Assembly (NCBI GenBank): GCA_030652245.1
Contig: JAUSBB010000138.1
Location: 1-50,799 of the forward strand
Reading direction: 5' to 3'
DNA from: Rhodocyclaceae bacterium
Lineage (GTDB): Bacteria > Pseudomonadota > Gammaproteobacteria > Burkholderiales > Rhodocyclaceae
DNA: 50,799 nucleotides
The position numbers and the translations under genes are program-made. The notes under the pieces are model-generated. The model had not been told where the DNA came from. It saw only the letters and a list, made by a program, of their open reading frames with translations, and did no database searches. Positions 8,365 to 48,600 of the stretch are shown here, one piece after another (position 1 is the first letter of the stretch; each line of letters starts with the position of its first letter).

Positions 8365-9359
8365 AAGACGAGCCGCAATTTTCTCCGCTTGCGGAGGATG
8401 CGACAAAAGTCGGCGCTGGCGGGACGGCGTCAGCCGGCTCGCCCGGTGAAATGGAGACGGCGTCAGCCGGCACGCCGGGTGAAACGGGGATGGCGTCAGC
8501 CGAATCGCCGGGTGAAATGGAGCCGGCGGCTGCCACTGCCACAGTCGGCCAGCGACTGCGTGCCGCACGCGAGGCGGCCCATTTGTCTGTTGCCGAGGTG
8601 GCCGACTCAATCAAGTTCAGTCCGCGTCAGATTGAACTGCTTGAGGCCGATGACTACGCTGGACTGCCTGGCGCCACCATTGTGCGTGGCTTCGTGCGCA
8701 GTTACGCCCGCTTGCTCAAACAGGACGCCGATCTGCTGTTGCATGTGCTGGATGCCGATACCCCCATTGCGCCAGCCGAAGTGCGCGCCCCCGGCAACAT
8801 GGGCGTTGCCAACGAGCCGGGCAAGCGGCAGTGGTCACCCCTGGTGTCGGCGACGATAGTCCTGGCGCTGGCCGCCCTGCTGCTGGGCCTGTGGCATTTC
8901 CTGGTCCCGCCGCTGGCGACGGAAACGGTTGTTGCGGCAGGTAGCCGGCTCTGGTCGGCGCCGCGCGCCTTGTTGTCGCCCGCGCCCGCCACCGAACCCG
9001 TGCCTGCCGTTCCCGCGCCGGCAGCCGCAACGCTGGAGTCAAGTGCGACGGTTCCGCCAGCGGCCGCGCCGGTTCCCGCTGAAGCTGGCAGCGCGCCGGC
9101 CGCGGTCGGCGCTGCGGTTGGCGAAATTACCCTGCAATTTGTTTTTCACGGACGCTCCTGGGTTGAGGTCGGCGATGTCACCCGGCAGAAGCTGCATTCC
9201 GCCGAGAATCCCGCTGGCAGCCGTTTGACGCTGACCGGTCGTCCGCCCTTCGATATCGTCATCGGCAATGCCGGCAAGGTTGCGCTGACCTACGCGGGTC
9301 GCCCGATCGATCTGGCGCCCTACACGCGCGCCGAAGTGGCGCGGCTGACACTCGAATAA
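8361..9359 (+). CDS. rodZ: Cytoskeleton protein RodZ (HTH, TM, C-terminal domain)
   Basis: [10 protein letters not shown]...[11 protein letters not shown], single TM, SWVEV...IGNA; start codon uncertain (TTG). Confidence 0.88.
8405..8428 (+). repeat. 24-bp intragenic motif, copy 1 (rodZ)
   Basis: AAAAGTCGGCGCTGGCGGGACGGC; reads KVGAGGTA. Confidence 0.92.
8421..8528 (+). repeat. 33-bp tandem repeat x3.3 in the rodZ N-terminus
   Basis: Units 8421-8453, 8454-8486, 8487-8519 encode [11 protein letters not shown] / [11 protein letters not shown] / [11 protein letters not shown]. Confidence 0.9.
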
Positions 9360-10609
9360 TGAACGCTACGGATACTCCGGTGCGTCGGTCGACGCGCCGC
9401 GTCATGGTCGGCAATGTCGCCGTCGGCGGGGGGCTGGACGGCGCGCCAGCCGCTCCGGTGGTCGTCCAGTCGATGACCAACACCGACACCGCCGATGTGT
9501 TTGCCACCAGCCAGCAGGTGGCGGAGCTTTACCGCGCCGGCTCGGAGGTGGTGCGCGTCACCGTGAACACCCGCGAAGCCGCCGCCGCCGTGCCGAAAAT
9601 TCGTGATCGGCTCGAGCTGTTAAACCTTAATGTGCCCCTGGTCGGCGACTTCCATTTCAACGGCCACAAGCTGCTGACGGAAGTGCCCGAGTGCGCCGCG
9701 GCGCTGGCCAAGCTGCGCATCAATCCCGGCAACGTCGGCAAGGGCGCGCGGCGCGACGAACAGTTCGCCAAGATGATCGAGATTGCCGGCAGGTACCAAA
9801 AGCCGGTGCGCATCGGCGTTAACTGGGGCAGCCTCGATCAGTCCTTGCTGGCGCGCCTGATGGACGAAAATGCAAAGCGCGCGGAACCCAAGGACGCGAC
9901 GGGACTGATGCGCGAGGCGATGGTCGCCTCGGCGCTCGAATCCGCAGCCCGGGCCGAAGCGCTCGGCCTGCCGGGCAATGCCATCATCCTGTCCTGCAAG
10001 GTTTCCGGCGTACAGGACCTGATCGCGATTTACCGCGACCTGGCCAGGCGCTGCGACTATCCGCTCCACCTCGGACTCACCGAAGCCGGTCTGGGCAGCA
10101 AGGGCATCGTCGCCTCGACCGCCGCGCTGGCGGTGCTGTTGCAGGAAGGCATCGGCGACACCATTCGCGTCTCGCTCACGCCCGAACCCGGCGGCGAGCG
10201 CACGCGCGAAGTCATCGTCGCCCAGGAAATCCTGCAAACCATGGGCCTGCGCGCTTTCGTGCCGATGGTGGTGGCCTGTCCCGGCTGCGGCCGCACCAGC
10301 AGCACCGTGTTTCAGGAACTCGCCCAGGATATTCAGACCTATGTGCGCGAGCGCATGCCGACATGGCAATTGCATCATCGCGGCGTGGAGAACATGACGC
10401 TCGCCGTGATGGGCTGCGTGGTCAACGGCCCCGGCGAGAGCAAGCATGCCAACCTTGGCATTTCGCTGCCCGGCACGGGCGAGGAGCCGGTCGCGCCGGT
10501 CTATGCCGACGGCGCGCGCATCACTACATTGCGCGGCGAGAACATTGCCGCCGAATTCAGAGCCATCATCGATACCTACGTCGCCAACAAATACCCTCTG
10601 CATTCATGA
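9359..10609 (+). CDS. ispG: (E)-4-hydroxy-3-methylbut-2-enyl-diphosphate synthase
   Basis: [40 protein letters not shown]. Confidence 0.97.
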
Positions 10610-11910
10610 GCCAGACCCTGCAAGCCATCCGCGGGATGAACGACATCCTGCCCGCCGACGCCGAGCGCTGGGAAGCCTTCGAGGAACTGATCCGCGACTG
10701 GCTGACGGCCTACGGCTACCGGCCGATCCGCATGCCGCTGGTCGAGCCGACCCCGCTGTTCGCCCGCGCCATCGGCGCCGTCACCGATATCGTCGAAAAG
10801 GAGATGTACTCCTTCACCGACAGCCTGAACGGCGAGCAACTGACGTTGCGCCCCGAAGGCACGGCCTCCTGCGTGCGCGCCGTGCTGCAGCACAACCTGT
10901 TGTATGACGGCCCCAAGCGGCTCTGGTACCTGGGCCCGATGTTCCGCCACGAACGGCCGCAGAAGGGTCGCTATCGCCAGTTTCATCAGGTCGGCGTCGA
11001 AGCGCTCGGCCTGACCGGTCCGGACATCGACGCCGAGCAGATCATCATGTGTTCTCGGCTGTGGGACGACCTGGGGCTGAACAGCGATGGCAGTATCAAG
11101 CTCGAAATCAATTCGCTTGGCCAGTTGGACGAGCGCGCAGCGCATCGCACCGCGCTGATCGCCTATCTGGAAAACCACGCCGACCAGTTGGACGAAGAAG
11201 CCCGACGACGGCTGCACAGCAACCCGCTGCGCATTCTCGACACCAAGAACCCGGCGCTGCAGACGTTGGTCGAGGGGGCGCCCAAGCTGATCGACTATCT
11301 GGGCAGCGACTCGCTCAAGCATTTCGAAGGCGTGCAGCGGTTGCTGAAAGATGCGGCGATTCCCTACCGCATCAACCCGCGTCTGGTGCGCGGGCTCGAC
11401 TATTACACTCTCACCGTGTTTGAATGGGTGACCGAGCGACTCGGCGCGCAGGGCACGGTGTGCGCCGGCGGCCGTTACGACGGCCTGGTCGAGCAGCTTG
11501 GCGGCAAGCCCGCGCCGGCCTGCGGTTTCGCGATGGGCATCGAACGGCTGATGGCGCTGCTCGAAGCGCAGGAAGGTTTCATCGCGCCGCCCGCGCCGGA
11601 TGTGTATGTCGTGCATCTCGGCGAGGCCGCGCAGCGGCTGGCTTTCCGAACGGCCGAAATGTTGCGGGATAGCGGCTGCGCCGTGTTCACCCACATGGGC
11701 GGCGGCAGCTTCAAGGCGCAATTCAAGCGCGCCGACGCATCGGGCGCGCAACTGGCGGTGATTATTGGCGACGACGAAGCCGCGAAGAATGAAGTGACCA
11801 TCAAGCCGCTGCGCGTAGCGGCTGAGCAGCAGCGTGTGCCGCTCGATGAACTGACGATCCGTGTCGGCGAATGGCTGTACGGCGCCGACGAAGAAACTAC
11901 CGAGGAATAA
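10606..11910 (+). CDS. hisS: Histidine-tRNA ligase
   Basis: [35 protein letters not shown]; start at MSQTLQ. Confidence 0.97.
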
Positions 11911-11924
11911 GCGAGGAAAAACAC

Positions 11925-12569
11925 ATGGCGACCTACGATCTCGAAGAGCAGGAACAAATCGAAGAACTCAAAACCTGGTGGAAGCTGCACGGCACCTTGA
12001 TCACGGCCGTGGTCGTGGCGCTCGCCGTCGGCGTGGTCGGCTGGCAGGGCTGGCAGTGGTGGCAGCGCGGTCAGGCGGCACAGGCCGGGCAACTGTTTGG
12101 TGAATTGCAGCGCTCCCTGGTGCAGCAGGATGCCAAGCGCGTGCGCCTCCTGGCCGGCGAGTTGATCGACAAGCACGCGGGAACCGCCTATGCCGGCATG
12201 GCCGCCATGCTCTCGGGCAAGGTGCTGGTCGATGTCGGCGACCTCAAGTCCGCGCAGGCCCAGTTTGGCTGGGCCGCCGAGCATGCCAAGGACCCCGGCC
12301 TGCGCGATCTGGCGCGCCTGCGCCAGGCCATCGTGCTGGCCGAGGAGGGCAATCATGATGCAGCGCTGCAGCGACTCGCCGTTCCGCCAGCGCCGACTTT
12401 CAAGACCCGCTATCTCGAAGTGCGCGGTGACATCCTGATGGCGCAGGGCAAGCCCGCCGAAGCGCGCGCCGCCTATGACGAAGCGCTCAAGCTGTTGCCG
12501 GCCGAATCCGTCGGATCGCCCTATCGTGAAATTCTCGAAGCCAAACGGGATTCAGGAGGTGTGGCGTGA
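11925..12569 (+). CDS. yfgM: YfgM-family TPR membrane protein
   Basis: YDLEEQEQIEELKTWW, TM, TPR; lies between hisS and bamB. Confidence 0.9.
   Translation: MATYDLEEQEQIEELKTWWKLHGTLITAVVVALAVGVVGWQGWQWWQRGQAAQAGQLFGELQRSLVQQDAKRVRLLAGELIDKHAGTAYAGMAAMLSGKVLVDVGDLKSAQAQFGWAAEHAKDPGLRDLARLRQAIVLAEEGNHDAALQRLAVPPAPTFKTRYLEVRGDILMAQGKPAEARAAYDEALKLLPAESVGSPYREILEAKRDSGGVA
12378..12401 (-). repeat. 24-bp intragenic motif, copy 2 (yfgM)
   Basis: + strand GCCGTTCCGCCAGCGCCGACTTTC = reverse complement GAAAGTCGGCGCTGGCGGAACGGC; reads AVPPAPTF. Confidence 0.9.
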
Positions 12570-13741: not shown

Positions 13742-15067
13742 ATGCTCCCCACACTGGCCATCGTAGGCCGCCCCAACGTCGGCAAGTCCACGCTCTTCAA
13801 CCGGCTGACCAAGACGCGCGATGCGCTGGTCGCCGACCAGCCCGGCCTGACGCGCGACCGTCATTACGGTCACGGCCGGCTTGGCGATCGTGCGTTTCTC
13901 GTCATCGACACCGGCGGCTTCGAGCCGCAGGCCACCGAAGGAATCGTCCATGAAATGGCGCGCCAGGCCGAGGCGGCGATTGCCGAGGCGGACGCGCTGC
14001 TGTTCATCGTCGACTGCCGCGTCGGCCTCACGCCACAAGACCGGGTCATCGCCGAGCGGCTGCGCAAGTCCGGCCGGCCGCTGCACCTGGTGGTCAACAA
14101 GGCCGAGGGCATGAACCGCGACGTGGTCGCCGCCGAATTCCACGAACTCGGTTGCGGCGAACCGCGCGTCATTTCGTCGGCCCACGGCGAGGGCGTGCGC
14201 GAATTGCTCGAATTCGTGCTGGCGGATTTTCCGGCCGAAGAGCGCGCGGCGGACGACAGCGGCGGCCCGCGCGTCGCCATCGTCGGGCGCCCCAACGTCG
14301 GCAAGAGCACGCTGATCAACACGCTGCTCGGCGAAGAGCGCATGATCGCTTTCGACATGCCGGGCACCACGCGCGATGCCATCGCCACGCCCTTCGAGCG
14401 GAACGGCAAGCACTACACGCTGATCGACACCGCCGGCCTGCGCCGCAAGGGGCGCGTCTTTGAAACCATCGAGAAATTTTCGGTGGTCAAGACGCTGCAC
14501 GCCATCGAGGCGGCCAACGTTGTCGTGCTGATGGTCGACGCGAGCCAGGATATTTCCGATCAGGATGCGCACATTGCCGGCTTCTGCATCGAGGCGGGCC
14601 GCGCGCTGGTGCTGGCGGTGAATAAATGGGACGCCATCGACGCCTATCGCCGCGAGCAGATCAAGCAGGACGTCGCCCGCAAGCTCAATTTCCTGGGTTT
14701 CGCGCGCGTGCATCACATCTCCGCGCTGAAAGGGCAGGGCGTGGCGGGCGTGCTGCAATCGGTCGATCGCGCCTACGCCGCCGCGATGGCCAAGCTGACC
14801 ACCCCCAAGCTCACCCGCGTGTTGCTCGATGCCGTGCAAAAGCAGGCGCCGCCCCGGCATGGCAATGTCCGCCCCAAACTGCGCTATGCGCACCAGGGCG
14901 GCAGCAACCCGCCGATCGTCGTCATCCACGGCAATGCGCTCGAACACGTACCCCCCGCTTACGTGCGTTACCTGGAGCACGTTTTCGTCGAGACCTTCAA
15001 GCTGCAAGGCACGCCGCTGCGTATTCAGTTCAAGGTCACCAAGAATCCTTACGTGGACAAAAAATAA
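13742..15067 (+). CDS. der: Ribosome biogenesis GTPase Der/EngA
   Basis: Two GRPNVGKS P-loops, DTGG and DTAG, KH-like C-terminus. Confidence 0.98.
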
Positions 15068-16994: not shown

Positions 16995-18143
16995 ATGCCG
17001 GTCTCTCCCCTTGGACGCTTGGGCGTCTGGTATTTTTTCTACTTCGCCTTTGTCGGCGCTTTCGCGCCGTTTTTCACGCTGTATCTCCAGGATGTCGGTC
17101 TCTCCGCTTGGGAGATCGGCGTGCTGATGTCGGTGCCGCAGGTGATGCGTCTGGTGGCGCCGAACCTGTGGGGACTGTTGGCCGACTACATTGGGCAGCG
17201 GGTCAGGATTGTGCGTCTGGCCGCGCTGTTCTCGGCACTGGGGTTTGCCGGCTTCTTCTTCACCCGGGATTACGTGCCGATGTTGCTGGCGATGGCCCTG
17301 GTCTGGTTTTTCTGGAGTGCCGCGCTGCCCCTGGTCGAGGCCATGACGCTCGATTATCTGGCGGAACATCCCGACCGCTACGGACGGATTCGCCTCTGGG
17401 GTTCCGTCGGCTTCATTGTCAGCGTGATGGTTATCGGCGCGCTGCTCGACTACCTGCCGATTGCCGCGCTGCTGTGGGCCATTCTGGCCATTCTGGCGAG
17501 CGTGCTGGCGAGCGCCCTGACCCTGCCCGATGCAAAAGTCGGCGCTGGCGGGACGGCGCCGCCACTGGGCAGTCTTCTCAAGCGCCCCGAGGTGCTGGCG
17601 TTACTGGCGGCGTGCTTTTTCATGGCGGTTGCCCACGGCCCGCTCTACGTCTTTTATTCGATTCATCTGGTTGATCACGGCTACGGCAAGATGGCGGTCG
17701 GCCTGTTCTGGTCACTCGGCGTGCTGGCTGAGATTGGCGTATTCATGGCCATGCCACGCCTGATGCGGCGGGTGTCGTTGCGCCGCATCCTACTGGCGAG
17801 CTTTGCCCTGGCGGTATTGCGCTTCCTCCTGATCGGCTGGGGGGCGGATTCGCCGGTGCTGTTGGTCATCGCGCAGCTCCTGCACGGCGCGACCTTCGGA
17901 GCCTACCATGCAGCGGCAATGGCGGTGCTGACGCGCTGGTTTGTCTCAAGGCAGCAGGCGCGCATTCAAGGCATTTACGGCAGCCTTTCATTCGGCGCTG
18001 GCGGCATGGTTGGCGGCATTGTCAGCGGCGCGGCCTGGGGTAGTCTGGGCGCCGGAATCACCTACACGCTGGCCGCGCTCTTCGCTGTCTGCGGCTGGTG
18101 GCTGGTTTGGCGCAGCCCGGCCGCGGCATGGCCTGTGAGATAA
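16995..18143 (+). CDS. MFS transporter (HcaT/PPP-like)
   Basis: About 12 TM segments; YGRIRLWGSVGF, QLLHGATFG. Confidence 0.88.
   Translation: MPVSPLGRLGVWYFFYFAFVGAFAPFFTLYLQDVGLSAWEIGVLMSVPQVMRLVAPNLWGLLADYIGQRVRIVRLAALFSALGFAGFFFTRDYVPMLLAMALVWFFWSAALPLVEAMTLDYLAEHPDRYGRIRLWGSVGFIVSVMVIGALLDYLPIAALLWAILAILASVLASALTLPDAKVGAGGTAPPLGSLLKRPEVLALLAACFFMAVAHGPLYVFYSIHLVDHGYGKMAVGLFWSLGVLAEIGVFMAMPRLMRRVSLRRILLASFALAVLRFLLIGWGADSPVLLVIAQLLHGATFGAYHAAAMAVLTRWFVSRQQARIQGIYGSLSFGAGGMVGGIVSGAAWGSLGAGITYTLAALFAVCGWWLVWRSPAAAWPVR
17534..17557 (+). repeat. 24-bp intragenic motif, copy 3 (MFS central loop)
   Basis: AAAAGTCGGCGCTGGCGGGACGGC; reads KVGAGGTA. Confidence 0.92.
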
Positions 18144-20576: not shown

Positions 20577-20728
20577 ATGAAGATGGCAAGGTAATGCAAA
20601 GGTTGAGCTTGCACCGTTAAGGCCATGATGTTATTTTGCTTTCCGCCAACATCCGCTGACGCGGGTGCTTGGCCTGCTCCAAAGCTGCGTTTGAATGTGG
20701 TCTAACCAGTCCCCAGCGGGGAGGCATT

Positions 20729-23629
20729 GTGAATAAACCAGGCAAATCAACGTCAACCAAGGCATCACTGCGGGTATCGCTGCTGACGGCATTGCTGACA
20801 TCCGCTTTTGGTGTCGCGGGTGTTTCAGATGCGCAGGCGGCGGGCCTGGGCAAGCTCACCGTGTATTCGGCCATTGGTCAGCCGCTGAATGCCGAGGTGG
20901 CGTTGACGGCGACGCCGGAAGAAATGTCTGCGCTGTCGGCCAAACTGGCTTCGCACGACGACTTCAAAAAAGCCGGCATCGAATTCATGTCGGCGCTCTC
21001 CGGTTTGCGCTTGAGTGTGGCAAAGCAGCCGGACGGCCAGCCCGTGCTGAAGTTGACCACCGAGCGGCCGCTCAATGAGCCTTTCCTGCATTTTCTCGTC
21101 GAATTGAACTGGACTGCGGGCCGTTTGGTGCGGGAATACACCTTCTTGCTCGACCCGCCCGAAATGCTGCAGGCGGCCAGACCGGCCTCCGTGGTCACCC
21201 CCGTGGTTCCCCCTGTTTTCCCGCAAGCAGTGCCGGTGCCCACCGTCCCCGCCAAGGCGCAGGCCGAACCCCGCCCCGTGCGTTCCGCCGATGCCGCGCC
21301 GGCCGTGGTCGCCAAATCCGCCAAACCCAAACCGCGCGCCGTCCCGGCAAGCGAACCGTCGGTCGTCATGCCAAGTACCGGAGGGCGTCAGGTCAAATCC
21401 GGCGATACCCTGAGCAAAATTGCCTTGGAGAACAAGCCGGCGACCGTCGGCCTCGACCAGATGCTGGTGGCGCTGTTCAACAGCAACCGCGAAGCCTTTG
21501 ACGGCAACAACATGAACCGTCTGCGTGCCGGCAGGATTCTGCGTCTGCCCGATCCGGGCGAGGTGGCTGGCGTCGATGCTGGCGAGGCGCGCAAGTTGAT
21601 TGTTGCGCAGACCGCCGATTTCAACGCTTACCGACGCAGCCTTGCCGGCGCCGCCGCGCTGGCGCCGGCCACCGAGACGCCGCCGCAGCAACGCGCCGCC
21701 GGCAAAATCAAGCCGCAGGTCGAGAGCAAGGCGCCGCCTGTCGCGGCCAAGGACAAGCTGGAGGTTTCGCCCACCGAAGCCGCCAAATTCGCCGGAGCTG
21801 CCAAAGCCTCTGGCGCAGCGAGCAAGGCCGCCCTTGAAGAAGATTTGATTGCCCGTGACAAGGCCTTGCGCGAGGCCTCCGGCCGGATCGCGGAACTTGA
21901 AAAAAATCTCGAAAATCTCAAGCATCTGGTTGAACTGAAGAGTCAGGCCGGCGCCCAGGTGCAGCAGCAGGCGCAGGCCGCCTTGCCCAAGCCCGCGGAA
22001 GTGAAGAAACCCGAACCGGCGCCGACCGTCAAACCAGTCGCGGAGCCTGTATCGGCGCCACCGCCCGCCGTTGCGGTGAAACCGGTCGAGGCCGCAGCGC
22101 CCGTTGCAGAAAAGCCAGCGGAAGCTCCACCAGAAGCCAAACCGGCCGAACCGCCGCCCGTAGCCGTCGCACCGCCCCAGCCCGCGGCGAAAAAACCGGC
22201 TGCTCCGCCACCGCCGCCACCGCCGGAACCCAGCTTTATCGAAGAAAACCCCGAGCTTGTTTTTGGCGGCGGCGGTTTGCTCGCCCTCCTGCTCGGTTAT
22301 CTGGGCTTTTCCGCCTATCGCAGGAAAAAGCAGGCGCGGGAAGAAATTGCGCAGCATGATGAACCCGGCGTTGCCGGCGCCCTGGCGGCGCGCCCGGGTG
22401 CGGTAGCCGGCGCGGCCAGCGAAAGCGTGGATAGCGGTGAAGTTTCCATCCAGGGCGACTTCAGTGAAGGCGGCGTGCTGACGACCGCTGAAAGCGTCGA
22501 TCCGGTCGCCGAGGCTGAAGTCTACATGGCCTACGGTCGCGACAGCCAGGCCGAGGAAATTCTGCAAGAAGGTCTCAAGACCGATCCAACCCGCACCGCC
22601 ATTCATCTCAAGCTGCTTGAGCTCTATGCCAATCGCAAGAGCGTGCCACGCTTTGAATTTGTGGCGAACGAACTGCATGGCCTGAATGGCGGCAAGGGGC
22701 CCGACTGGGACAGAGCTGTCGCGCTGGCGGCGGGCCTGGGCTTGACAGGCGGACTGTTCGCGGTTGTGGCGGTGGCGAGCCCGGCGGTCTTCGCTCCTGC
22801 CGAAGCGGCTCTGGCAGCGGAAGCGCAACCCCCTGCCGAGGAGGAGGTCGGTTCTTTCGATTTTGATCTCGATCTTGGTACCGCCAGTGGGGTCAGTGGA
22901 GTCAGTGGATTAGCGGTTGCCGCGGAACCGGCTGGGCAGCAACCCGCGGCTGAAGCGGCGGGCCTCGACTTTGATTTTGATCTGGGTTCCCCTACGCAAA
23001 ATCCGCCGCCGGTCGCGATGGCTGAAACTGCGGCAGTTGAAGGCAATGTTGTTGACTTTTCACTGGATATCGGCAGTTCGACCGAGGCCCCGGCAGTGGA
23101 ACCCGCAGTTGCCGCTGGCAATGAGATCGAATTCGATCTTGATTTAGGTTCGGCCCAGGTAACTCCGGTCGCCGTCGAGATTGCGGAACCTGTTGCAAAA
23201 AGTGGTGCGGGCGAGCTTGATTTCGACTTCGATCTGGAGTTGGGGGCCGAAGAGCCAACACCGGTCGGGGTCGAAACCGAGCCCCGCGCAACCGCAACGG
23301 GTGCCGAGCCTCTTGTCGCGCTTGATCTTGCGGGAATCAATTTCGATTTGGGCGAGACGGGTTCCAAGGCAGAGCAAGGTGCGCCCGCCGAGGAGGCAAC
23401 CGAGATGGCGGAAGAGGCAGCGCCAGCGGTTGAGCAGGATGCAGCGTCCAAAGAGGTTGCCGCGGAAACGGATGACTCGGAAGTGGCGACCAAGCTGGAA
23501 CTTGCCCTGGCCTATGAGGAAATGGGTGATCGGGAAGGCGCACGCGAGTTGCTGAACGAGGTTCTCAACGAGGGTAGCCCAGCCCAGCAGGGCCAGGCGC
23601 GCGCGCGACTCGATCAGTTGGATCTTTGA
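20729..23629 (+). CDS. fimV: FimV/HubP polar landmark protein
   Basis: GLGKLTVYSAIGQPL, LysM-like segment, coiled coil, TM, acidic FDFDL repeats, C-terminal TKLELALAYEEMGD; GTG start after GGAGG. Confidence 0.92.
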   Translation: MNKPGKSTSTKASLRVSLLTALLTSAFGVAGVSDAQAAGLGKLTVYSAIGQPLNAEVALTATPEEMSALSAKLASHDDFKKAGIEFMSALSGLRLSVAKQPDGQPVLKLTTERPLNEPFLHFLVELNWTAGRLVREYTFLLDPPEMLQAARPASVVTPVVPPVFPQAVPVPTVPAKAQAEPRPVRSADAAPAVVAKSAKPKPRAVPASEPSVVMPSTGGRQVKSGDTLSKIALENKPATVGLDQMLVALFNSNREAFDGNNMNRLRAGRILRLPDPGEVAGVDAGEARKLIVAQTADFNAYRRSLAGAAALAPATETPPQQRAAGKIKPQVESKAPPVAAKDKLEVSPTEAAKFAGAAKASGAASKAALEEDLIARDKALREASGRIAELEKNLENLKHLVELKSQAGAQVQQQAQAALPKPAEVKKPEPAPTVKPVAEPVSAPPPAVAVKPVEAAAPVAEKPAEAPPEAKPAEPPPVAVAPPQPAAKKPAAPPPPPPPEPSFIEENPELVFGGGGLLALLLGYLGFSAYRRKKQAREEIAQHDEPGVAGALAARPGAVAGAASESVDSGEVSIQGDFSEGGVLTTAESVDPVAEAEVYMAYGRDSQAEEILQEGLKTDPTRTAIHLKLLELYANRKSVPRFEFVANELHGLNGGKGPDWDRAVALAAGLGLTGGLFAVVAVASPAVFAPAEAALAAEAQPPAEEEVGSFDFDLDLGTASGVSGVSGLAVAAEPAGQQPAAEAAGLDFDFDLGSPTQNPPPVAMAETAAVEGNVVDFSLDIGSSTEAPAVEPAVAAGNEIEFDLDLGSAQVTPVAVEIAEPVAKSGAGELDFDFDLELGAEEPTPVGVETEPRATATGAEPLVALDLAGINFDLGETGSKAEQGAPAEEATEMAEEAAPAVEQDAASKEVAAETDDSEVATKLELALAYEEMGDREGARELLNEVLNEGSPAQQGQARARLDQLDL

Positions 23630-25697: not shown

Positions 25698-26892
25698 TCA
25701 ATACAACATGCCCGACGATCATGGGCATTTCGGCAAATATGGCGGCATTTTTGTTGCTGAAACGTTGATACCCGCCCTAGCGGAACTTAACGCTGCCTAT
25801 GCGGCCGCCAAAGCCGATCCAGCTTTCCGGGCCGAGTTCGAGTACGAATTGGCTCATTACGTAGGTCGTCCCAGCCCGATCTACCATGCCAGGCGTTGGT
25901 CGGAACGGCTGGGTGGCGCGCAGATCTATCTCAAGCGCGAAGACCTCAACCATACTGGCGCCCACAAGATCAACAACTGTATTGGCCAGGCGCTCCTGGC
26001 GCGACGCATGGGCAAGCGGCGGGTGATCGCCGAGACCGGCGCGGGGCAGCACGGCGTCGCCTCCGCGACCGTCGCCGCGCGTTATGGCATGGAGTGCGTG
26101 GTTTACATGGGCAGCGAGGACATCAAGCGTCAGGCCGCCAACGTTTACCGCATGAAATTGCTGGGCGCCAAGGTAGTGCCAGTCGAGTCGGGGTCGAAAA
26201 CCCTCAAGGATGCCTTGAACGAGGCTATGCGTGACTGGGTGACCAATGTTGCCGATACCTTTTACATCATCGGCACGGTGGCGGGGCCGCATCCGTATCC
26301 GATGATGGTGCGCGATTTTCAGGCGGTGATCGGTCGGGAGTGTCTTGGCCAAATGTCGGCGCTGGCGGGACGGCAGCCCGATGCGGTGATTGCCTGCGTC
26401 GGCGGCGGCTCCAACGCCATGGGGATTTTCTACGACTACATTCCCGATGCGGCGGTCAAGCTGGTCGGCGTCGAGGCGGCGGGGCACGGCATGGCCAGCG
26501 GCAAGCATGCCGCTTCATTGACGGCTGGACGCCCCGGCGTTCTCCACGGCAACCGCACCTATCTGCTGCAGGACGCCAACGGCCAGATCATCGAAACCCA
26601 TTCGATTTCCGCAGGGCTCGACTATCCCGGTGTCGGCCCCGAGCATGCCTGGCTGAAGGACACCGGCCGGGCGGAATATGTCACCGTGACCGACGACGAG
26701 GCGCTGGCCGCCTTCCACGATCTGTGCCGCGACGAGGGGATCATCCCGGCGCTCGAATCAAGTCATGCGTTGGCTTATGCCACGCGACTGGCGCCGACGC
26801 TGCCGAAAGACAAAATCCTGCTCGTCAATCTGTCTGGCCGGGGCGACAAGGACATGCATACTGTTGCTGAAAAATCGGGGATTCAGTTCTGA
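25687..26892 (+). CDS. trpB: Tryptophan synthase beta chain
   Basis: [36 protein letters not shown]. Confidence 0.98.
26351..26374 (+). repeat. 24-bp intragenic motif, copy 4 (trpB)
   Basis: AAATGTCGGCGCTGGCGGGACGGC; different frame, reads QMSALAGRQ. Confidence 0.9.
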
Positions 26893-28582: not shown

Positions 28583-29892
28583 TGACCGCCACGCCAGCTT
28601 GCCTCGACGACTGGCTGGATCATCTCGAACGTCTGCACCCGCGCGGTCAGGCGGGCATCGAGCTTGGGCTGGAACGCGTGCGGCAGGTCAGCGCTGTCTT
28701 GCAGCAGCGCCAGGACTGCCCGGTCATCACCGTGGGCGGAACCAATGGCAAGGGTTCGACCTGCGCCATGCTTGAGCGCATTCTGCTGGCCGCCGGCTAT
28801 CGCGTCGGCGTCTACACTTCGCCCCATCTGCTGCGTTACAACGAACGGGTGCGCCTGAATGGCGTGCCGGCGGATGACGCGGATTTCTGTGCGACGTTTT
28901 CCCGGGTCGAGGCGGCCAGAATCAACGCGGGTGATGTGCCGCTCACCTATTTCGAGTTCGGCACGCTGGCGGCCTGGGAAATGTTTGCCGTCGCCGGGCT
29001 TGACGCGATCATCCTTGAAGTCGGCCTCGGTGGCCGGCTGGATGCCACCAACATCTACGATGCCGACTGCGCGATTGTGGCTGCCGTTGGGCTGGATCAC
29101 ATGGATTATCTGGGCCCGACGCGCGAGCATATCGGGCGCGAAAAGGCCGGCATCTGTCGTGCCGGGCGACCACTGATCTGCGGCGATGCCGAGCCGCCGC
29201 AAAGTCTGATCGAAACCTGCCGTCTCGCCAGCGCCGACTTTTGGCAGATTGGCCGTGACTTCGGTTTTCTGAAGCAGGAAGGGCAATGGCAGTACTGGGA
29301 GAATGACGGCCGCAAGCTTGGTGGCCTGGCCTTCCCGGCCTTACGCGGGGATTGCCAGTTGCACAACGCCAGTTGCGCCATTGCCGCGCTGTATGCCTTG
29401 CATGACCGGCTGCCGGTTGCGGTGCAGGATATCCGGCGCGGCCTGGCCGAAGTCGCGGTGGCCGGCCGCTGCCAGGTTTTGCCGGGGCGGCCGCAGGTCG
29501 TGCTTGATGTCGCCCACAACCCGCAGGCCGCTGTGGCGCTTGCGGCGAGTCTCTCCGGCATGGGGTTTGCGCGAACCACCTGGGCGGTGTTCGGCATGAT
29601 GGCGGACAAGGACATTGCCGGCGTGATCGCGGCGATCCGTCATCGGATTGACCGCTGGCTGCCCTGCGATCTGCCGGGGCAACGTGCGGCGACTGCCGCC
29701 GACCTTGCCGAGGTCATCGCAAAAGTCGGTATTGGCGAGACGGCAGGGCAATTTTCTTCACCCGCGGCGGCGCTTGCCCATGCAGAAGAGAAGGCGGGCG
29801 ACGATGATAGAATTCTCGTCTTTGGATCGTTCCTGACGGTGGCGGGTGTGATGCGCCCGGATCCTGTTCAACCTCCTGGCCGCAAGACGTGA
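28582..29892 (+). CDS. folC: Dihydrofolate/folylpolyglutamate synthase
   Basis: GTNGKGS, YTSPHL, EVGLGGRLDATN, DVAHNP. Confidence 0.96.
29219..29242 (-). repeat. 24-bp intragenic motif, copy 5 (folC)
   Basis: + strand GCCGTCTCGCCAGCGCCGACTTTT; reads CRLASADF. Confidence 0.92.
29721..29744 (+). repeat. 24-bp intragenic motif, copy 6 (folC, degenerate)
   Basis: AAAAGTCGGTATTGGCGAGACGGC, 3 mismatches; reads KVGIGETA. Confidence 0.75.
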
Positions 29893-39098: not shown

Positions 39099-39518
39099 AT
39101 GGCATCCACCAAGCCTTATCTGATTCGCGCCATCCACGAATGGTGTCTGGACGAGGGCTTCACGCCCTACCTCGCCGTGCAGGTCGATCCGCAAACCCGC
39201 GTGCCGCGCGAGTTCGTCAAGGACGGGCAAATCGTCCTTAACGTCGGCGTCGAGGCCACCCATAAACTGCTGATCGGCAACGAAGAGATCAGCTTTCAAG
39301 CCCGCTTCAACGGTGCATCCTTCCCCGTGCTGGTGCCGCTCTCCGCCGTGCTGGCCATCTACGCGCGCGAGAACGGGCAGGGCATGGCCTTCGAAGCCAG
39401 CCCCGAAAATGCGCAGGGTGAAGAAGTCGGCGCTGGCGGGACGGCGAACCTGGAAGCCGCGACTGAAAAAACAGAGCCGCCCACACCCCGCGGCACCCAC
39501 CTGACACGCATCAAATAA
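39099..39518 (+). CDS. sspB: ClpXP adaptor SspB
   Basis: STKPYLIRA..EW, IYARENGQGMAF, C-terminal LTRIK. Confidence 0.95.
   Translation: MASTKPYLIRAIHEWCLDEGFTPYLAVQVDPQTRVPREFVKDGQIVLNVGVEATHKLLIGNEEISFQARFNGASFPVLVPLSAVLAIYARENGQGMAFEASPENAQGEEVGAGGTANLEAATEKTEPPTPRGTHLTRIK
39422..39445 (+). repeat. 24-bp intragenic motif, copy 7 (sspB tail)
   Basis: AGAAGTCGGCGCTGGCGGGACGGC; reads EVGAGGTA. Confidence 0.9.
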
Positions 39519-39521: not shown

Positions 39522-39597
39522 TGGCGCCCCCAGCACGAATCGAACGTGCGACCCCCTTCTTAGGAGGAAGGTGCTCTATCCACTGAGCTATGGGGGC
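39522..39597 (-). tRNA. tRNA-Arg (CCT)
   Basis: Reverse complement GCCCCCATAGCTCAGTGGATAGAGCA-CCTTC CT CCT AA GAAGG-...GTTCGATTC...GGGGGCGCCA; 76 nt with encoded CCA. Confidence 0.95.
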
Positions 39598-39638: not shown

Positions 39639-39815
39639 ATGAGTGACAGGTCAGTGGAAATAACGCCGCAATCCCGGGCTCCCCGACGCGGGTGGCGCGT
39701 CCTTGGCTGGTTGCTGCTGGGCGCCGTGCTCGGCGCGGCGCTGGTGGCCGCCTTCCTCGCCTACGGTCAGCCGGAACTGCTGCTGGAGCAGTTGAATCTG
39801 CGCTACTGTGGTTGA
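39639..39815 (+). CDS. Small single-TM hypothetical protein
   Basis: 58 aa; basic stretch, hydrophobic helix, then FLAYGQPELL..C. Confidence 0.5.
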   Translation: MSDRSVEITPQSRAPRRGWRVLGWLLLGAVLGAALVAAFLAYGQPELLLEQLNLRYCG

Positions 39816-40666
39816 CTGCCGGTCGTTTCGGCTGTTGGCGCTGCGTCGGGTTTGTCCAGCCCCAACCGGCGCATCACCGCTTCCTCGCTCAAGTGCAGCA
39901 ATTCGCCGATGGCCTTGTAGTCGTCCGGCAAGGCGGCATCGTCCCAGCCGTTGGCTGAGTGGCGCGCCAGGTCAACCGCGAGTTTGACGTTCCGCGCGCG
40001 TGGATGGTCGTCGTTGTCGTGATTCATCAGGGTAGTCAGCAACTCGGGCAGGCGCCAGGACTGGGCTAGTGCCAGTTTGATTTGATGGAGCGGGACGTTG
40101 AAAACTTCTGTTTGGACTGCGACCGAGCGTAGCGTCCGGTCGGCCTGGAGTCTTTCAGCAACCTGTACGGTGAGTTTCGGCGCAAAGCACCACATGAGAA
40201 TCTCTACGAAATCGTAAAGCAGGGTGGCAACGATCACTTCATCAACGTCGAGGTCGTGCCGATAGATCGCCCAGTCGCGCGCCCACAGCGCTGCCTTGCG
40301 CGCGCGGTTGATGGTTTTGAGCAGGCCGAGCAGGGCGCGCGGATGCGGCTTCAGTTGATCCTCGATCAGCGGTAGTTCCTGAAAGTCGCGGAAGAAGGGC
40401 TCCATGCCGATCATCATCAGCGCGCGTTCGATGGTGGTGATGTCGGTGTCGCGGTTCTTGTTGCGTTTGGCCTCGATATAGGCCAGCACGCGCAGCGTCA
40501 TCAGCGGGTCGTGAAGAATGACCGACGAAATAACGCGCGCGTTGGATTGGTTGGCATTGGCGCGCAATTCGGACAAGCGTTGCTCGGTGTGGCGCAGCAC
40601 GGGAATGCTCGCCTGGTTGAAAAAAGCCACCCAGGCGTCGAGATCGGGGAAAGGTTTATCAATCAT
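39803..40666 (-). CDS. HDOD-domain protein
   Basis: [18 protein letters not shown]...[14 protein letters not shown]. Confidence 0.85.
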
Positions 40667-41264: not shown

Positions 41265-41265
41265 G

Positions 41266-42345: not shown

Positions 42346-42376
42346 AAAAAAGGGCTGCCTGCGGGTGGCCCTTTTT
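42346..42376 (+). terminator. Bidirectional-type intrinsic terminator after rplI
   Basis: AAAAAAGGGCTGCC-TGCG-GGTGGCCCTTTTT. Confidence 0.85.
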
Positions 42377-42398
42377 GTCGGCTTAGAATAGCAGTGTC

Positions 42399-45300
42399 AT
42401 GCTGCACCTTCATCTAAGTAATCGCCCCGACACGCTGGCCCTGGCGCAGGCGGCGTTGTTGCGCGCCGCGCCGCTGCCCTTGCTGGAAACCGAGCAGGTG
42501 GTGGTCCCGGCCACGGCGGTGGCGCGCTGGCTGGGGCTCCGGCTGGCCGACGAACTGGGGATCGCCACCCGGATTGCCTTTCCGTTTCCCGCCGCTTACG
42601 CCTGGCATCTGTTTGGGCGGGTGCTGGCGGAGGTTGCCGCGGTCAATCCGTTTGATCGCGCCGCGCTGCAATGGCGTCTGTTGCGCTTGTTGGGCGAGAG
42701 CACCGCGCCGGAGGTGCGGCGTTATCTGGCTGACGATGATGGCGTCAAGCGCTATGAACTCGCCAGCCGGCTGGCTGCCCAGTTCGATCGCTATCTCGTC
42801 GAGCGCCCCGACTGGATCGAGTGTTGGGGTGCGGGCAAGCTGCTGGGACTCGGGCCGGACGAAGCCTGGCAGGCTGGCGTGTGGCGAACCCTGATGAGCG
42901 AACTCAAGGATGTTGTCGCCGAGCATCCGCGGACACGCTTCATGGCGCAATTGCGGCGGGACGCCACCGCGCGCGCGCGCCTGCCGCGCCGGATTAGCCT
43001 GTTTGCCGTCGAGGCCATGCCCGCACTCTACTGGGAGGTGTTCCTCGGCCTGGCCGAATGGGTCGACCTGCATGTCTTTGTGCTGACGCCCTGCCGCGAA
43101 TACTGGGGCGACATCGACCGGGAGCGCGTGCGGCTGCGCATGACCATCGAAAACCCCGCGGCCGCCGCCTTGCTCGAAGCGGGGCACCCCCTGCTGGCCT
43201 CGCTGGGACGGGCGCGCCAGCATGTGGTTGCCCGGCTTGCCGAGGCGGGCGAGCGCCTGCCGACCCGGGAGCATCAGTATTTCATTGGTCCGAAGAAATA
43301 CGCCGGGCCGCCCCAAGTATTTCTTGGCCCCCTGGGGGGAGAAAGCCGCGCAGCGGCTTTTTCGGGGGGGGATCTTTTTACGCTGCTGGGGCGTTTGCAG
43401 GAGGATATTCTTGACCTCACGACCAGCGTTGATGTGCCGCTCGATGCTTCGCTGCAAATCCATGCCTGTCACGGCCCGCTGCGCGAAGCCGAGGTGCTGC
43501 ACGATGCGCTGCTGGCGCTGTTCGAGGCCATGCCTGACCTCTCTCCGGCGGATCTCCTGATTCTCACCCCCGACATCGAAACCTATGCGCCGGCCATCGA
43601 GGCGGTGCTGCTGCATGCGCCGGCAAAGCGACGCATTCCCTGTGTGGTGGCCGATCGCCCGCGGGTTGCCGCGCCGTTGTGGCGCGCGCTGCGTCGTCTG
43701 TGCGCGGTGGCCGAGAGTCCACTCGACGCCGAAAGCGTCATGGGCCTGCTGGAAGAGCCGGCCGTGCGGCGCGCCTTTGACCTTGCCGAAAGTGAATTGC
43801 CACTGTTGCGCGACTGGGTCGCCGTGGCGGGAATCCGCTGGGGCCTGGATGGCCGCGCGCGCGCGCGGCGCGGCTTGCCGGCGGAGGATGCCCATACCTG
43901 GCGGGCGGGGTTGCAGCGTTTGTTGTTGGGCGTCGCAATGCCCGATGTACCCGAACGTTTGTATGACGAGGTATTACCGGTGGCCGGCATCGAGGGCGGC
44001 CGCGCTGAATTGCTGGGCCGTTTTTCCGACTATCTCGAAGCCCTGTTTACTTTGGTACAGAAAGTCGGCGCTGGCGAAACGGCGTTGAAATGGGTCGATA
44101 CCTTGAGCGAGGCGCAGGAACGCTTTCTCGCCCCGACCGAAGCGGAGGAGGACGAAGCGCAACGCATCCGCGACGGGATCAAAGCGCTGGCAACGCATGC
44201 GCGCGCGGCCCGCTGCGAAACCCGGTTGCCGCTGGCCGTCATGCTGCGCGAACTTGACGCCGCGCTCACCGAACGGGCGAGCGCGCGGGCCTTTGCCTCC
44301 GGCGCGGCGACCATCGCCGCCTTGCAGCCCGGCCGACCGCTGCCGGCGCGGGTGCTGTGCCTGGTTGGCATGAACGACGGCGCCTGGCCGCGTCCTGACG
44401 CGCCGACCAGTTTTGACCTCATTCAGCGCCATCCCCGGCCGGGTGATCGCAACCGGCGCGGCGAGGAGCGTTATGCGTTTCTTGAGGCGCTGCAGTGCGC
44501 GGGCGATGCCCTCGTCATTACCTATACCGGCCGCGATTCGCGCAGCAATGTCGAATTCCCGCCCGCCGCGCCGCTCGCCGAATTGCTCGACACACTGGTC
44601 AAGATGACTGGTCGGGAGGCCGCGGCACTGGTGGTGCAACATCCCTTGCAGCCTTTCAGTGCGGCGTATTTCGATCGGTCCGCGCCGACGTTGTTCAGCT
44701 TCGATGCCGAACAATGCAACGCCATCCGTGCAGAACGTGCCGCCAGCCCATTTCTGGTCGAGACGCCGGTGCATGGGCCAGCCACAGCCGCTCCCCCGGA
44801 ACTTGAATTGCCGCGCCTGCAACGCTTTTTCGACCATCCCGTGCGCTTTTACCTGCGTGAGCAACTGGGCATTCATCTCGAAGAAAGCGAAGAGCTGCTC
44901 GAAATTCACGAACCCTTCATCACCGACAACCTCGACAACTACCGCCTGCGCGAGGCGCATTTTGCCGGCATCAAAGGGGGCGCGACGGCTGACGAAACCA
45001 GGCGTCTCGTCCGGGCGAAGGGCTGGCTGCCGCATGGCGTGGCCGGGGAAATCGCCAGCGCGGCGGCGCAGGAAGAAGCCCGCGCGCTCTGGCAATCTGC
45101 TCAAGCCTTCGTCATGGCCGAAGCCTTGCCGCCGCTGGAGGCGCGCTTCGACGACGGGCAGACGGTCCTTTCCGGTCGGCTGGATCAGATCACGGCAAAC
45201 GGACTGTGGCGTCTGCGCTTCGGCAGCGCCCGTCCGCAGGATCTGTTGCGCCTGTGGATCGATCATCTGCTGTTGCAGCTTGCCGCGCCGCCCGGCGTGG

Positions 45301-45665
45301 TGAAGCAAAGCGTGCTGCTGGCCAACAATGGCGTGACGGTGCTCAGTCCCGTCGGTGCAGCGTCCGTGCGCTTGGGGGAGCTTGTTGCGCTGTATCGACA
45401 GGGCCAGCACGCACCGCTGCCGTTCTATCCAAAAACCGCCTGGGCCTGGCTGGAAGGAAAATCGGGCTGGCGCGGCGTCTGGAGCGGCCTTAAACACCCG
45501 CCCCGCCCCGGCGAGCGCGATGATGCCTATCTGCGCTTAGTGTTGCGCGATCGGGCGGACGATCCGCTGGATGGTGGCGGCCCGCTGGGCCAGGAGTTCC
45601 AGCAACTGGCGCGGCAAATTTTCGGGCCGCTGCGGCAGGCCATGGGGAAAGCCGGCGATGCTTGA
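42399..45665 (+). CDS. recC: Exodeoxyribonuclease V gamma subunit
   Basis: SNR...L, PCREYWGD, HPLLASLG, HACHGPLREAEVLHD, PDIETYAP, HPLQPF. Confidence 0.93.
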   Translation: MLHLHLSNRPDTLALAQAALLRAAPLPLLETEQVVVPATAVARWLGLRLADELGIATRIAFPFPAAYAWHLFGRVLAEVAAVNPFDRAALQWRLLRLLGESTAPEVRRYLADDDGVKRYELASRLAAQFDRYLVERPDWIECWGAGKLLGLGPDEAWQAGVWRTLMSELKDVVAEHPRTRFMAQLRRDATARARLPRRISLFAVEAMPALYWEVFLGLAEWVDLHVFVLTPCREYWGDIDRERVRLRMTIENPAAAALLEAGHPLLASLGRARQHVVARLAEAGERLPTREHQYFIGPKKYAGPPQVFLGPLGGESRAAAFSGGDLFTLLGRLQEDILDLTTSVDVPLDASLQIHACHGPLREAEVLHDALLALFEAMPDLSPADLLILTPDIETYAPAIEAVLLHAPAKRRIPCVVADRPRVAAPLWRALRRLCAVAESPLDAESVMGLLEEPAVRRAFDLAESELPLLRDWVAVAGIRWGLDGRARARRGLPAEDAHTWRAGLQRLLLGVAMPDVPERLYDEVLPVAGIEGGRAELLGRFSDYLEALFTLVQKVGAGETALKWVDTLSEAQERFLAPTEAEEDEAQRIRDGIKALATHARAARCETRLPLAVMLRELDAALTERASARAFASGAATIAALQPGRPLPARVLCLVGMNDGAWPRPDAPTSFDLIQRHPRPGDRNRRGEERYAFLEALQCAGDALVITYTGRDSRSNVEFPPAAPLAELLDTLVKMTGREAAALVVQHPLQPFSAAYFDRSAPTLFSFDAEQCNAIRAERAASPFLVETPVHGPATAAPPELELPRLQRFFDHPVRFYLREQLGIHLEESEELLEIHEPFITDNLDNYRLREAHFAGIKGGATADETRRLVRAKGWLPHGVAGEIASAAAQEEARALWQSAQAFVMAEALPPLEARFDDGQTVLSGRLDQITANGLWRLRFGSARPQDLLRLWIDHLLLQLAAPPGVVKQSVLLANNGVTVLSPVGAASVRLGELVALYRQGQHAPLPFYPKTAWAWLEGKSGWRGVWSGLKHPPRPGERDDAYLRLVLRDRADDPLDGGGPLGQEFQQLARQIFGPLRQAMGKAGDA
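43293..43371 (+). repeat. Structured repeat, copy 2, in-frame in recC
   Basis: AAGAAATA-CGCCGGGCCGCCCCAAG-TATTTCTT, then CCCCC..GGGGG and GAAAGCCGC-GCA-GCGGCTTTT hairpins and a G-run. Confidence 0.88.
44060..44083 (+). repeat. 24-bp intragenic motif, copy 8 (recC)
   Basis: GAAAGTCGGCGCTGGCGAAACGGC; reads KVGAGETA. Confidence 0.9.
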
Positions 45666-48600
45666 ACGGCCTCCCTTTGATGTGACGCTCGCCGGCGTCG
45701 GCCTGGTCGAGGCGGGCGCCGGCACGGGCAAGACCTGGACGATCACCGCGCTGGTGTTGCGCCTGTTGCTCGAACAGAATCTGGAAATCGGCCAGATTCT
45801 CGTCGTCACCTACACGCGCGCCGCCACCGGCGAGTTGCGCGGCCGCATCCGTAAGCGGCTGATTCAGGCGCTGGCGGCGTTTGAGGCGGGGACGACCGAG
45901 GATGAATACCTGCAAGCGCTGCTGCTTCGGCATGATCCCGAACAGGCCGCTGCCCGGCTGCGGCTCGCCATCGAAAGCTTCGACGAAGCTGCCATCTTCA
46001 CCATTCACGGCTTTTGCCAGCGGGCGCTGACGGAAACGGCCTTCGCCGCCGGACAGCCATTCGAGCGCGAACTGCTCGCCGATCAGCAGGACATGCTGGC
46101 TGACGTGGCCCGCGACGCCTGGCGCAAGTTGCTGGCAACGGCATCGGCATCCTGGGCGCGCTGGCTGATCGAGGCATTGGGCGGACCGGACGGGCTGGTT
46201 CGCCGGGTGCGCTCCCATGTGGGTCGTATCGACGCAGAGATCCTGGCGCCGGACGCCGATGATCCGCAAGAGGCAGAACAGGCCTTTGCCGCCGCCTTTG
46301 CCACGGCGCGCCTGCTCTGGCAGGCCGATGCGGCGAAGATTTGCGCCTGGCTGGACGGCGCCAGGCTCCACCAGGCCAGCTATGCGCCGGAAAAAATGCA
46401 GCCCCGGATTGATTGGCTGGGGCAACTGTTCGCCGGCGAAACCCCGCTGTTTCCCTTGCCCGCTGCAGTGGAATTTTTCGGACTGGCAAAGATCACGGCA
46501 AAGCGCACCAAAACCAGCCCGCAACCCGAGCATGAATTCTTTGGCGCGGTCGACGCGCTGTTGCAAACGGCCGGGCGTCTCGAAACCGCGTATGACAATG
46601 CCGTGCGCCGGCTGCTGCATGACTTTTTGCGCACGGCCCGGCTTGAGCTGGCCGCCAGAAAACGCCGCAGCGGACAGATGGCCTACGACGACCTGCTCGC
46701 CGATCTGGCCCATGCGCTGCAAGAGCCGGCCGGCGCCGCGCTCGCCGGCAGTCTGCGCGAGCGTTACCGGGCGGCGCTGGTCGATGAGTTCCAGGACACC
46801 GACCCGCTGCAACTCGATATATTTTTTGGCATATTTGGGCAGAAATTCGGTCAGGAAGATCACCCGCTGATTTTTGTCGGCGACCCCAAGCAGGCGATCT
46901 ACGGTTTTCGCGGCGCGGACGTGTTTGCCTATCTGACGGCGCGGCGGCAGGCCGACGCACGCTACGTCCTGCTGGAAAATCGGCGCTCCGCTCCGCCCTT
47001 GTTGACGGCCGTGAATGCCCTGTTCGCGCGCCCCAATCCCTTCCTGCTCGACGACTTGCCATTCGAGCCGGCCAGGGCGGCGACCATGGAGCGCCAGCTT
47101 TGCCGCATCGACGATGGCCTGTCCCCGCTCACGCTCTGGTCGATGTCGAAACCAGGCGACGAGAAAAGCTTTACGAAGGAGGCGGCGCTGGGGATGGCCG
47201 CCACGGCAGTTGCAACTGACATAGCACGCCTGCTGGCGTTGGCGGCGACGGGGCGCGCCACGCTGGGCGCAGGGAAGGGAGGCGCGCGGGACGACGCGCG
47301 CAGGCTCGGCGGCGGCGACATTGCCGTGCTGGTGCGCAAGCATCATCAGGGCGAGGCGGTGAAGCAGGCCCTGGCGCGGCGCGGCATTGCCAGCGTCAGC
47401 ATGGGCGGCGGCAGCGTTTGGCACAGCATCGAGGCCGAGGAAATCGAGCGCTGGCTGCTCGCGGTGGCCGCCCCGTCGCGGGCCGGCCTGGTGCGGGCGG
47501 CGCTGGCGACGGTGCTGCTCGGCGCGGATGCCGGAGAACTCGCGGCCTGGGCTGACTCTGATCCGGCCTGGAGCGCGCGCCAGGGATCGTTCCACGACGA
47601 CTTGCTGCTTTATCGCGAGCGCGGCTTCATGGCGATGTGGCGTCGGCTGTTGCGGCGCGAGGGGGTGGTTGCCCGTGTGCTGGCGCGTCCCGACGGCGAA
47701 CGGCGTCTGACGAATTACCGCCATCTGGCCGAATTGTTGCAAGCGGCCGAACACGCCGGCACGCTCGACGTCGAAGGGCTGGCGCGGCATGTGGCGCGTG
47801 AGCGGGCAGGCAGCGAAGCCGAGGAGGCGCAACTGCGGCTGGAAAGTGATGCACAACTGGTGCGCATCGTCACCATCCATGCCGCCAAGGGTCTGCAATA
47901 TCCCATCGTCTACTGCCCCTTCCTGTGGGACGGGCCGGGCGCCGACGACAAGCATTGGCCGGTGTTTGCCCACAATATTGGCCCACCCCGCAAACCTTCG
48001 CTACGCTCGGTTCTCCCCTCAAGGGGCGAGAAACTCTTGGGGCGGCCCGGCGAGTTTCTAAACCGTGCCTGTCTCGATTTCGGTTCCGCGCAAATCGATG
48101 CGCTGAGGCAGCAGGCCGATCTAGAGGACGCCGCCGAAGAACTGCGCCTGGCCTATGTTGCGCTGACCCGCGCCGAGCATCGCTGCGTCATCATTTGGGG
48201 CAAGGTGAATCAATGCGCGCGCTCGCCGCTCGCCTGGCTCTTGTTCGCGCCGCGCACGGCGGATGACGGCGACGCCGGCAACCCACGCGCACAACTGGCC
48301 GACAGGCTGGACAATCTGGACGAGGCCGCTTTGCAGGCCGAGATTGCCGAACTGGCTGACAGGTTGAAGGGGGCGATGTCGATTGCGCCCTGGCCGGTGG
48401 ATGGCGCACCTGTCGTGGCGGCACCCGTGGCTGCGCAAGAACTGATGGCGCGGCCCTTCCTGGGAACGATTCCCGCGCCCTGGCGCATCAGCAGCTTTTC
48501 CAGCCTGGCGGCGCGGCTGGGCAACGAGGAGACGCCGGATCGCGATGCGGTGACGGTCATTGACGCCGTCTCGCCAGCGCCGACTTTTACAAACATTCAT

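Follow-up and report, generated by a model that had tools for sequence, protein, structure and literature searches.

A lineage-wide 25-base word in Rhodocyclaceae genomes with traits of a probable DNA-uptake signal

Sequence-specific DNA uptake is described for two families only, mainly of mucosal bacteria (PMC7811141). According to the same source, the DNA uptake sequence (DUS) of the Neisseriaceae and the uptake signal sequence (USS) of the Pasteurellaceae arise by point mutation, are depleted in coding DNA and in DNA of recent acquisition, are evenly spaced and form dialects. About half of the DUS and USS copies lie in predicted terminators (bioRxiv 10.1101/2025.10.24.684340). The present analysis concerns a 25-base word found nine times in a 50,799-nt contig stretch (the window) of the Rhodocyclaceae genome G000 (assembly GCA_030652245.1, contig JAUSBB010000138.1) and 470 times in that genome as a whole. 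Judged from its genomic traits, this word appears to work like the DUS and USS, yet belongs to neither family. It is real and lineage-wide, and no published description was found by full-text search, a search that left subscription journals mostly, and supplements entirely, outside its coverage. Among the full-text matches listed, none was to the three main-dialect strings; all were to a fourth string, of 11 letters, in unrelated papers.

With the DUS, whose receptor is ComP, the word shares a non-palindromic form, occurrence on both strands, placement in genes and spacers, lineage dialects, biased frame use and depletion in acquired DNA (PMC7811141; bioRxiv 10.1101/2025.10.24.684340; PMC3630211). 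It differs in having 25 bases instead of 10–12, in a density of one copy per 4.8 kb in G000, in lacking inverted-pair terminators, and in hosts in which no ComP-like pilin was found to track it and ComEA is mostly not found. With the USS, for which ComN/PpdA is the predicted receptor, it shares an extended motif, an origin by point mutation, relatively even spacing and a molecular-drive signature (PMC7811141; PMC12616744); it differs in lacking AT-rich flanking tracts, its flanks being at background, in a conservation of 83–99% at nearly every position, and in its GC-rich, environmental hosts. The canonical DUS occurs twice in G000 against 5.4 expected and the USS core five times against 12 expected. 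The new uptake-sequence dialect proposed in the original prediction is partly supported: the genomic traits that it foresaw are seen, but the word is not a dialect of the DUS or the USS, whose own words stand at or below chance. The cyanobacterial HIP1, an 8-base palindrome linked to methylation, is likewise abundant genome-wide and situated within coding DNA; the word differs from it in being long, asymmetric and divided into dialects. With repetitive extragenic palindromic elements (REP/REPIN) and miniature inverted-repeat transposable elements (MITEs), the word shares short hairpin-forming satellites at a minority of its sites; it differs from them in that 84% of its sites are solo, unfolded and overwriting codons.

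The genome G000 comprises 2,273,462 bases in 214 contigs (63% GC, 85% complete), and its most frequent 12- to 20-mers come from the word, AAAAGTCGGCGCTGGCGGGACGGCG, which carries about 39 bits. Seeding either half of the word retrieves the other half, the ends are sharp, and information outside the 25-mer is at background on both sides. The word had been described as a 24-bp motif; the motif holds and its length is amended by the 3′ G, conserved at 82–83%, with nearly every position at 83–99%. Where an order-5 Markov model predicts 0.145 copies of the exact 16-mer, the genome has 277, and scanning at no less than 19 bits yields 470 sites, 241 on the plus and 229 on the minus strand, with none in a reversed-genome control, in agreement with the hundreds of copies that had been anticipated. 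Of these sites, 293 fall within the 2,286 genes of our own gene caller (91% coding), 145 lie in spacers and 32 straddle a gene boundary; since non-coding DNA makes up about 9%, spacers are favoured and coding DNA is under-represented, so that the claim of strictly intragenic copies applies to the window and not to the genome. In-gene sites use all six frames, beyond the four recorded earlier, and do so very unevenly (115, 86, 43, 34, 11 and 4). The word folds weakly (−3.9 kcal/mol) and matches no Rfam family. Ribosomal-protein-like genes contain 0 sites against 1.8 expected, a difference too weak to be of use.

Within the window, all nine predicted copies are found at their places and on their strands with 0–3 mismatches each, against 0 expected in 100 dinucleotide shuffles, and a weight-matrix scan at a minimum of 10 bits returns those nine sites and none further. 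As predicted, the 20-base core is exact in eight of the nine, its RR positions showing all four forms. Perfect copies lie in a rodZ-like gene (8405..8429, +, reading KVGAGGTA, 44.4 bits) and in a major facilitator superfamily (MFS) transporter gene (17534..17558, +), where a non-carrier orthologue is longer by 2 residues, "non-carrier" meaning negative for the patterns searched. Further copies lie in the gene between hisS and bamB (12377..12401, −, 39.2 bits), in trpB (26351..26375, +, QMSALAGRQ), in folC (29218..29242, −, CRLASADF), in the C-terminal part of sspB (39422..39446, +), in recC (44060..44084, +) and in recB (48564..48588, −), and folC carries a second, degenerate copy (29721..29745, +, KVGIGETA, 25.8 bits). 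The host names proposed earlier are secured for trpB, folC, sspB, recC and recB, which pass NCBIfam cut-offs, and for the MFS gene, which passes a subfamily cut-off; the rodZ match is below cut-off, and the hisS–bamB gene, presumably yfgM from its gene order, has no NCBIfam match. The recC and recB genes (42399–49215) are patchy in the family: they exceed the cut-off in 24 of 69 genomes, and the close relatives G002 and G237 lack them.

The alignments of these host genes indicate how sites arise. The TrpB site is gap-free in a 30-sequence alignment in which most non-carriers have QMPELAGRQ or a close variant, while members of the genus match the word in part and to varying degrees; a tblastn search of TrpB against plasmids gave a placement among Betaproteobacteria and nothing more. 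The folC site at 29218..29242 equals 26 of 27 orthologues in length, again with graded partial matches across the genus, and the second folC site is otherwise alike, with 1–2-residue gaps in some orthologues; apart from these gaps, the earlier observation that residues of TrpB and FolC are replaced without length change is confirmed. Another carrier clade has a FolC site of its own 13 codons upstream of the 29721..29745 site, and among homologous loci aligned across the site, the word stands at the same place as in G000 in 22 of 36. For a wider length test, 1.04 Mb of non-carrier DNA, most of it from G046, supplied orthologues for 46 of the 293 in-gene sites. Of the 42 solo sites among them, 17 show no net length change, 21 a change of 1–5 residues, 3 a gain of 6 or more and one a loss of 9, so that the proposed build-up by substitution holds in the main, with three sites looking like insertions.

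Solo sites amount to 397 of the 470 in G000. A related unit of 30–36 bases that repeats the word's tail accompanies 57 of the 470, adjoins the word in 49 of 52 cases, and in genes is always of a length divisible by three (33 in 26 of 29). The window offers an example in the rodZ linker, where three tandem 33-base units are appended to the word (8430..8528, +), each unit closing with a sequence like the word's 3′ tail and the rodZ reading frame being kept. A left extension, fold-back or REP-like in form, is present at 18 sites, two of which also carry a satellite unit. These satellites look secondary. Several other composite structures were observed: in ispH of G000 (contig C5, L257:303-1319), an in-frame insertion of about 30 residues consists of a REP-like hairpin with a partial word on one side and a full word on the other; in G005, which has several such arrays, tandem 54-base units derive from inverted word halves (L342, ~6,100-6,480); and in G000 a small cassette is enclosed by two words with duplicated flanks at C172:4470-5335, where it is a toxin-antitoxin-like module, and at C141:2606-3500, which suggests insertion with duplication at the word. 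A separate REP-like repeat of about 100 copies in G000 starts CCGGGCCGCCCCAAG.

Sites repel one another over short distances. Specifically, pairs closer than 1 kb number 32 in G000 against 76 expected for the same count per contig, and beyond 1 kb the ratio of observed to expected is 0.98–1.18, with no deficit. Strand and position were followed on the complete carrier chromosome G002, whose GC skew, taken in 20 stretches, switches near 1.0 Mb and near 2.5 Mb. Over 0–2.0 Mb, the region covered on both strands, exact copies number 104 leading and 82 lagging (p = 0.12), no significant bias, which is the outcome that the uptake idea had called for. In the 20 sampled stretches, the word is found 41 times leading and 47 times lagging, against 44 and 17 for a control resembling the FtsK-orienting polar sequence (KOPS); copies occur in all 20, with no restriction to ori or ter.

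The word is present in 23 of 24 members of the genus, and 16 other families have 0–1 copy. Among 250 family genomes, the exact 15-mer reaches 38–469 copies in 21 genomes (7 of 83 genera), and a gapped pattern adds genera g29, g41, g90 and g97, giving 32 genomes in 11 of 83 genera. Such high copy numbers in 32 of 250 genomes, with codon-compatible variation, reject an adapter, primer or assembly artefact, which had been named as one way in which the motif might fail. Outside the family, a looser pattern in 293 genomes (G310 included) stays at control level, the highest count being 23 against a control of 8. Dialects are seen in genera g1, g27, g29, g90 and g97; those of g29 (AAAAGTCAGTCC-..-ACGGCG), g97 (AAAGTCAGCCG-..-ACGCC) and g90 (CAAGTCGGCGCTGG-..-ACGGCGAT) were derived from 100-kb samples. 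All share two conserved blocks at fixed spacing. In a four-protein tree, most carriers form one weakly supported group with g29 outside it and the non-carriers G011 and G074 nested within; G011 and genus g51 are nested lineages without the word. Titled records give 150 copies for Sulfuritalea, 310 for Sulfurisoma, 274 for Rugosibacter and 640 for Propionivibrio, with 5 for Azonexus and 1–5 for Thiobacillus, Tepidicella and Casimicrobiaceae.

Depletion in horizontally acquired DNA, predicted for an uptake signal, is seen on several scales. The lowest-GC fifth of 5-kb windows in G000 contains 48 sites against 80–83 in the top three fifths, and in 400 kb of G002 the DNA shared with G000 has one site per 3.4 kb against one per 6.4 kb in unshared DNA (p = 0.004). 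The comM gene is known to be disrupted by mobile elements in competent species (PMC12378983). In 3 of 31 carriers an insertion of 40–60 kb divides it within a single contig (G002:C1 1,179,404-1,220,387; G123:C1 459,969-521,998; G232:C8 240,984-285,551), and in the non-carrier G053 it is split over two contigs. The G002 interval has 0 exact copies in 39.6 kb against 3.8 expected (p = 0.02), and the G123 interval has 0 in the 20 kb examined. A site in or at the start of comM is present in 8 of 9 carrier loci against 0 of 3 non-carrier loci. Five phage contigs of unknown host, picked for a 16-mer match and amounting to 299 kb, contain 6 sites with the full pattern, compared with 377 in the 2.27-Mb genome. 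A simple depletion picture is contradicted by an island of the non-carrier G074, which holds 7 copies in 11 kb; we read its open reading frames (L328; G074:C1, ~1,602,000-1,614,000) as primase-like, helicase, methyltransferase, Abi-like and TIR-like, and the island as restriction and abortive-infection-like. Clusters of the word also occur in the non-carriers G140 and G302. On an IMG/VR contig (L176, 301–1649), five words, four of them at 316-base spacing, alternate with four hairpins that we take to be attC-like, which would make this an integron-like array of short cassettes each with a word.

The genes for uptake machinery in G000 comprise pilQ, pilT, pilU, pilD, pilB-type ATPases, comEC, dprA, comF, recA and radA (all except comEC assigned by motifs), and word sites are present in its comEC, comF and pilD. 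The window itself encodes pilW (7570..8364, +, TIGR02521 over cut-off) and a fimV/hubP-family gene (20669..23629, +), neither with a word copy inside, so the type IV pilus genes reported there are indeed present. A search for ComP returned one PF16732 match over cut-off, a PilE-type gene after ispH that is truncated by a contig end; its product has no cysteines in 124 residues, and a similar pilin occurs in the non-carrier G043. Pilins examined as receptor at about 50 loci (PF16732, PF07963, PF12019) were set aside, as minor-pilin cassettes vary among carriers and recur in non-carriers, and an isolated weak match proved to be a conserved pilin-like gene between lepB and rnc that is also found in the non-carrier G149. 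No receptor candidate emerged from synteny at comEA loci or from a survey of small, basic proteins predicted as secreted. Among the competence genes, comEC and pilus genes are present, no receptor pilin was found, and ComEA was not found in 29 of 31 carriers. Elsewhere in the window, a non-coding RNA search found a tRNA alone (39525-39597, −), near a 287-residue open reading frame (39803-40666, −) in a lower-GC stretch with no NCBIfam family.

On these traits taken together, we lean towards the view that the word is the recognition site of a putative DNA-uptake receptor and serves as a self-recognition signal for the DNA of relatives. Under this model, a surface or periplasmic protein would bind both conserved blocks, and word-bearing fragments would be imported and recombined preferentially; biased uptake and homologous recombination would then fix substitutions that bring a sequence closer to the word (molecular drive), little would be gained from another site less than about 1 kb away, which would produce the observed spacing, and changes in the receptor would shift the dialect. 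We infer the receptor, the uptake and the drive from the distribution of the word. A single process of biased uptake and recombination would account for the abundance, the overwriting, the 1-kb repulsion, the dialects and the empty islands. Since most carriers yielded no ComEA, a periplasmic protein that took its place may, speculatively, perform the sequence-specific step.

Several observations weigh against the uptake reading. Solo in-gene sites are skewed in the sign of their length change (20 longer, 5 shorter, 17 equal) where 84% of random control windows are unchanged, which indicates that sites prefer indel-tolerant loops and that some gained residues; this skew to small gains means that substitution is not the whole story. 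The genes comEC (45 of 45 genomes) and comM (49 of 50 with a match) are found in carriers and non-carriers alike and do not discriminate between them. Only 2 of 31 carriers have ComEA (TIGR00426 over cut-off), compared with 15 of 38 non-carriers (Fisher p = 0.002, with kin not independent), a PF12836 search of five genomes, four of them complete or nearly so and one a draft, gave a Tex-sized protein or nothing, and loss of comEA lowers Legionella transformation about 100-fold (PMC7811196). No pilin family tracking the word emerged from the ten genomes listed and the loci read. No convergent pair in G000 is closer than 251 bases and inverted-pair terminators are absent there, one inverted pair each being seen in samples of G113 and G120. 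Moreover, we know of no competence experiments for this group. The density is about five times below the 1-kb spacing of the USS, and the length of the word greatly exceeds that of the 9–10-base uptake cores (PMC7811141). The missing ComEA, the lack of terminator pairs and the unusual length keep two rivals alive, namely an intracellular protein and a word-writing enzyme.

The stronger of these, which we consider unlikely although worth retaining, has the word bound inside the cell by a protein that organises or segregates the chromosome or acts in repair, comparable in role to SlmA, Noc or MatP; selection on cell fitness would spread the sites evenly and the dialects would follow the protein. 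Two conserved blocks at fixed spacing across dialects, even site spacing, the failure to find ComEA in 29 of 31 carriers and the lack of a receptor pilin all suit such a protein. It is harder to reconcile with copies in all 20 stretches of G002 and no ori or ter restriction, with 40–60-kb islands that persist copy-free in the parts examined, with nested lineages (G011, genus g51) that do without the word, and with small mobile elements that are dense in it even in non-carrier hosts. The word is also asymmetric, and the known sites of the SlmA, Noc and MatP kind are palindromic.

Less probable still is a nicking or recombination enzyme that turns near matches into the word, writing or repairing it through conversion between copies, with satellites as by-products and with neither benefit nor uptake role for the word. 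The tail-repeating units at 57 sites, placed almost only beside the word, the skew to length gain and the 39 bits, which are much for single-step build-up, point in this direction; the predominance of solo sites and the graded, codon-compatible partial matches at fixed sites point away from it. In addition, a crude motif scan returned no transposase or nuclease gene flanked by clustered copies, and copying would not predict repulsion within 1 kb.

That the word is a dispersed repeat of the MITE or REP type which has inserted into genes is very improbable. A minority of sites do belong to composite repeats, some beside REP-like hairpins, and the composite in-gene sites are longer than their orthologues by 4–10 residues in 4 of 4 cases. 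The word itself, however, has no terminal inverted repeats, no conserved flanks and only a weak fold, and 39 of 42 solo sites lack a gain on the 8-residue scale, TrpB and FolC being gapless; insertion with target duplications, raised at the outset as a possible undoing of the motif, is largely refuted by these mostly gapless or small changes. A polar signal of the Chi or KOPS kind, including the extended Chi-like signal suggested earlier, is rejected, and with it a gene transfer agent packaging site is scarcely credible: RecBC is encoded in the window and the middle of the word is one base off E. coli Chi, but there is no significant polarity, recC is over cut-off in just 5 of 31 carriers against 19 of 38 non-carriers, the g29 and g97 dialects lack the Chi-like middle, and 5 of 5 complete carriers have no PF03237 terminase, other terminase families not having been searched.

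Carried further, the uptake reading would make the word part of a third, independently evolved uptake system, a tentative extension that we hold possible rather than probable. Such a system would combine a 25-base self-signature of about 39 bits with a receptor replacing ComEA, its genus dialects would act as gene-flow barriers between Rhodocyclaceae of fresh water and wastewater, and both integron-like cassettes and small islands of defence genes would have accumulated the word so as to be carried along by transformation. If true, a third case in free-living bacteria, with a longer word, dialects and nested non-carriers, would provide an independent test of molecular drive against selection for self-DNA, and the word would direct attention to a new protein that reads long DNA sites. 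Should its partner prove intracellular, the word would represent an undescribed chromosome-wide marking system. Either way, it can serve in practice to tell DNA of recent acquisition, and it may be key to the transformability of these denitrifying, sulfur-oxidising bacteria.

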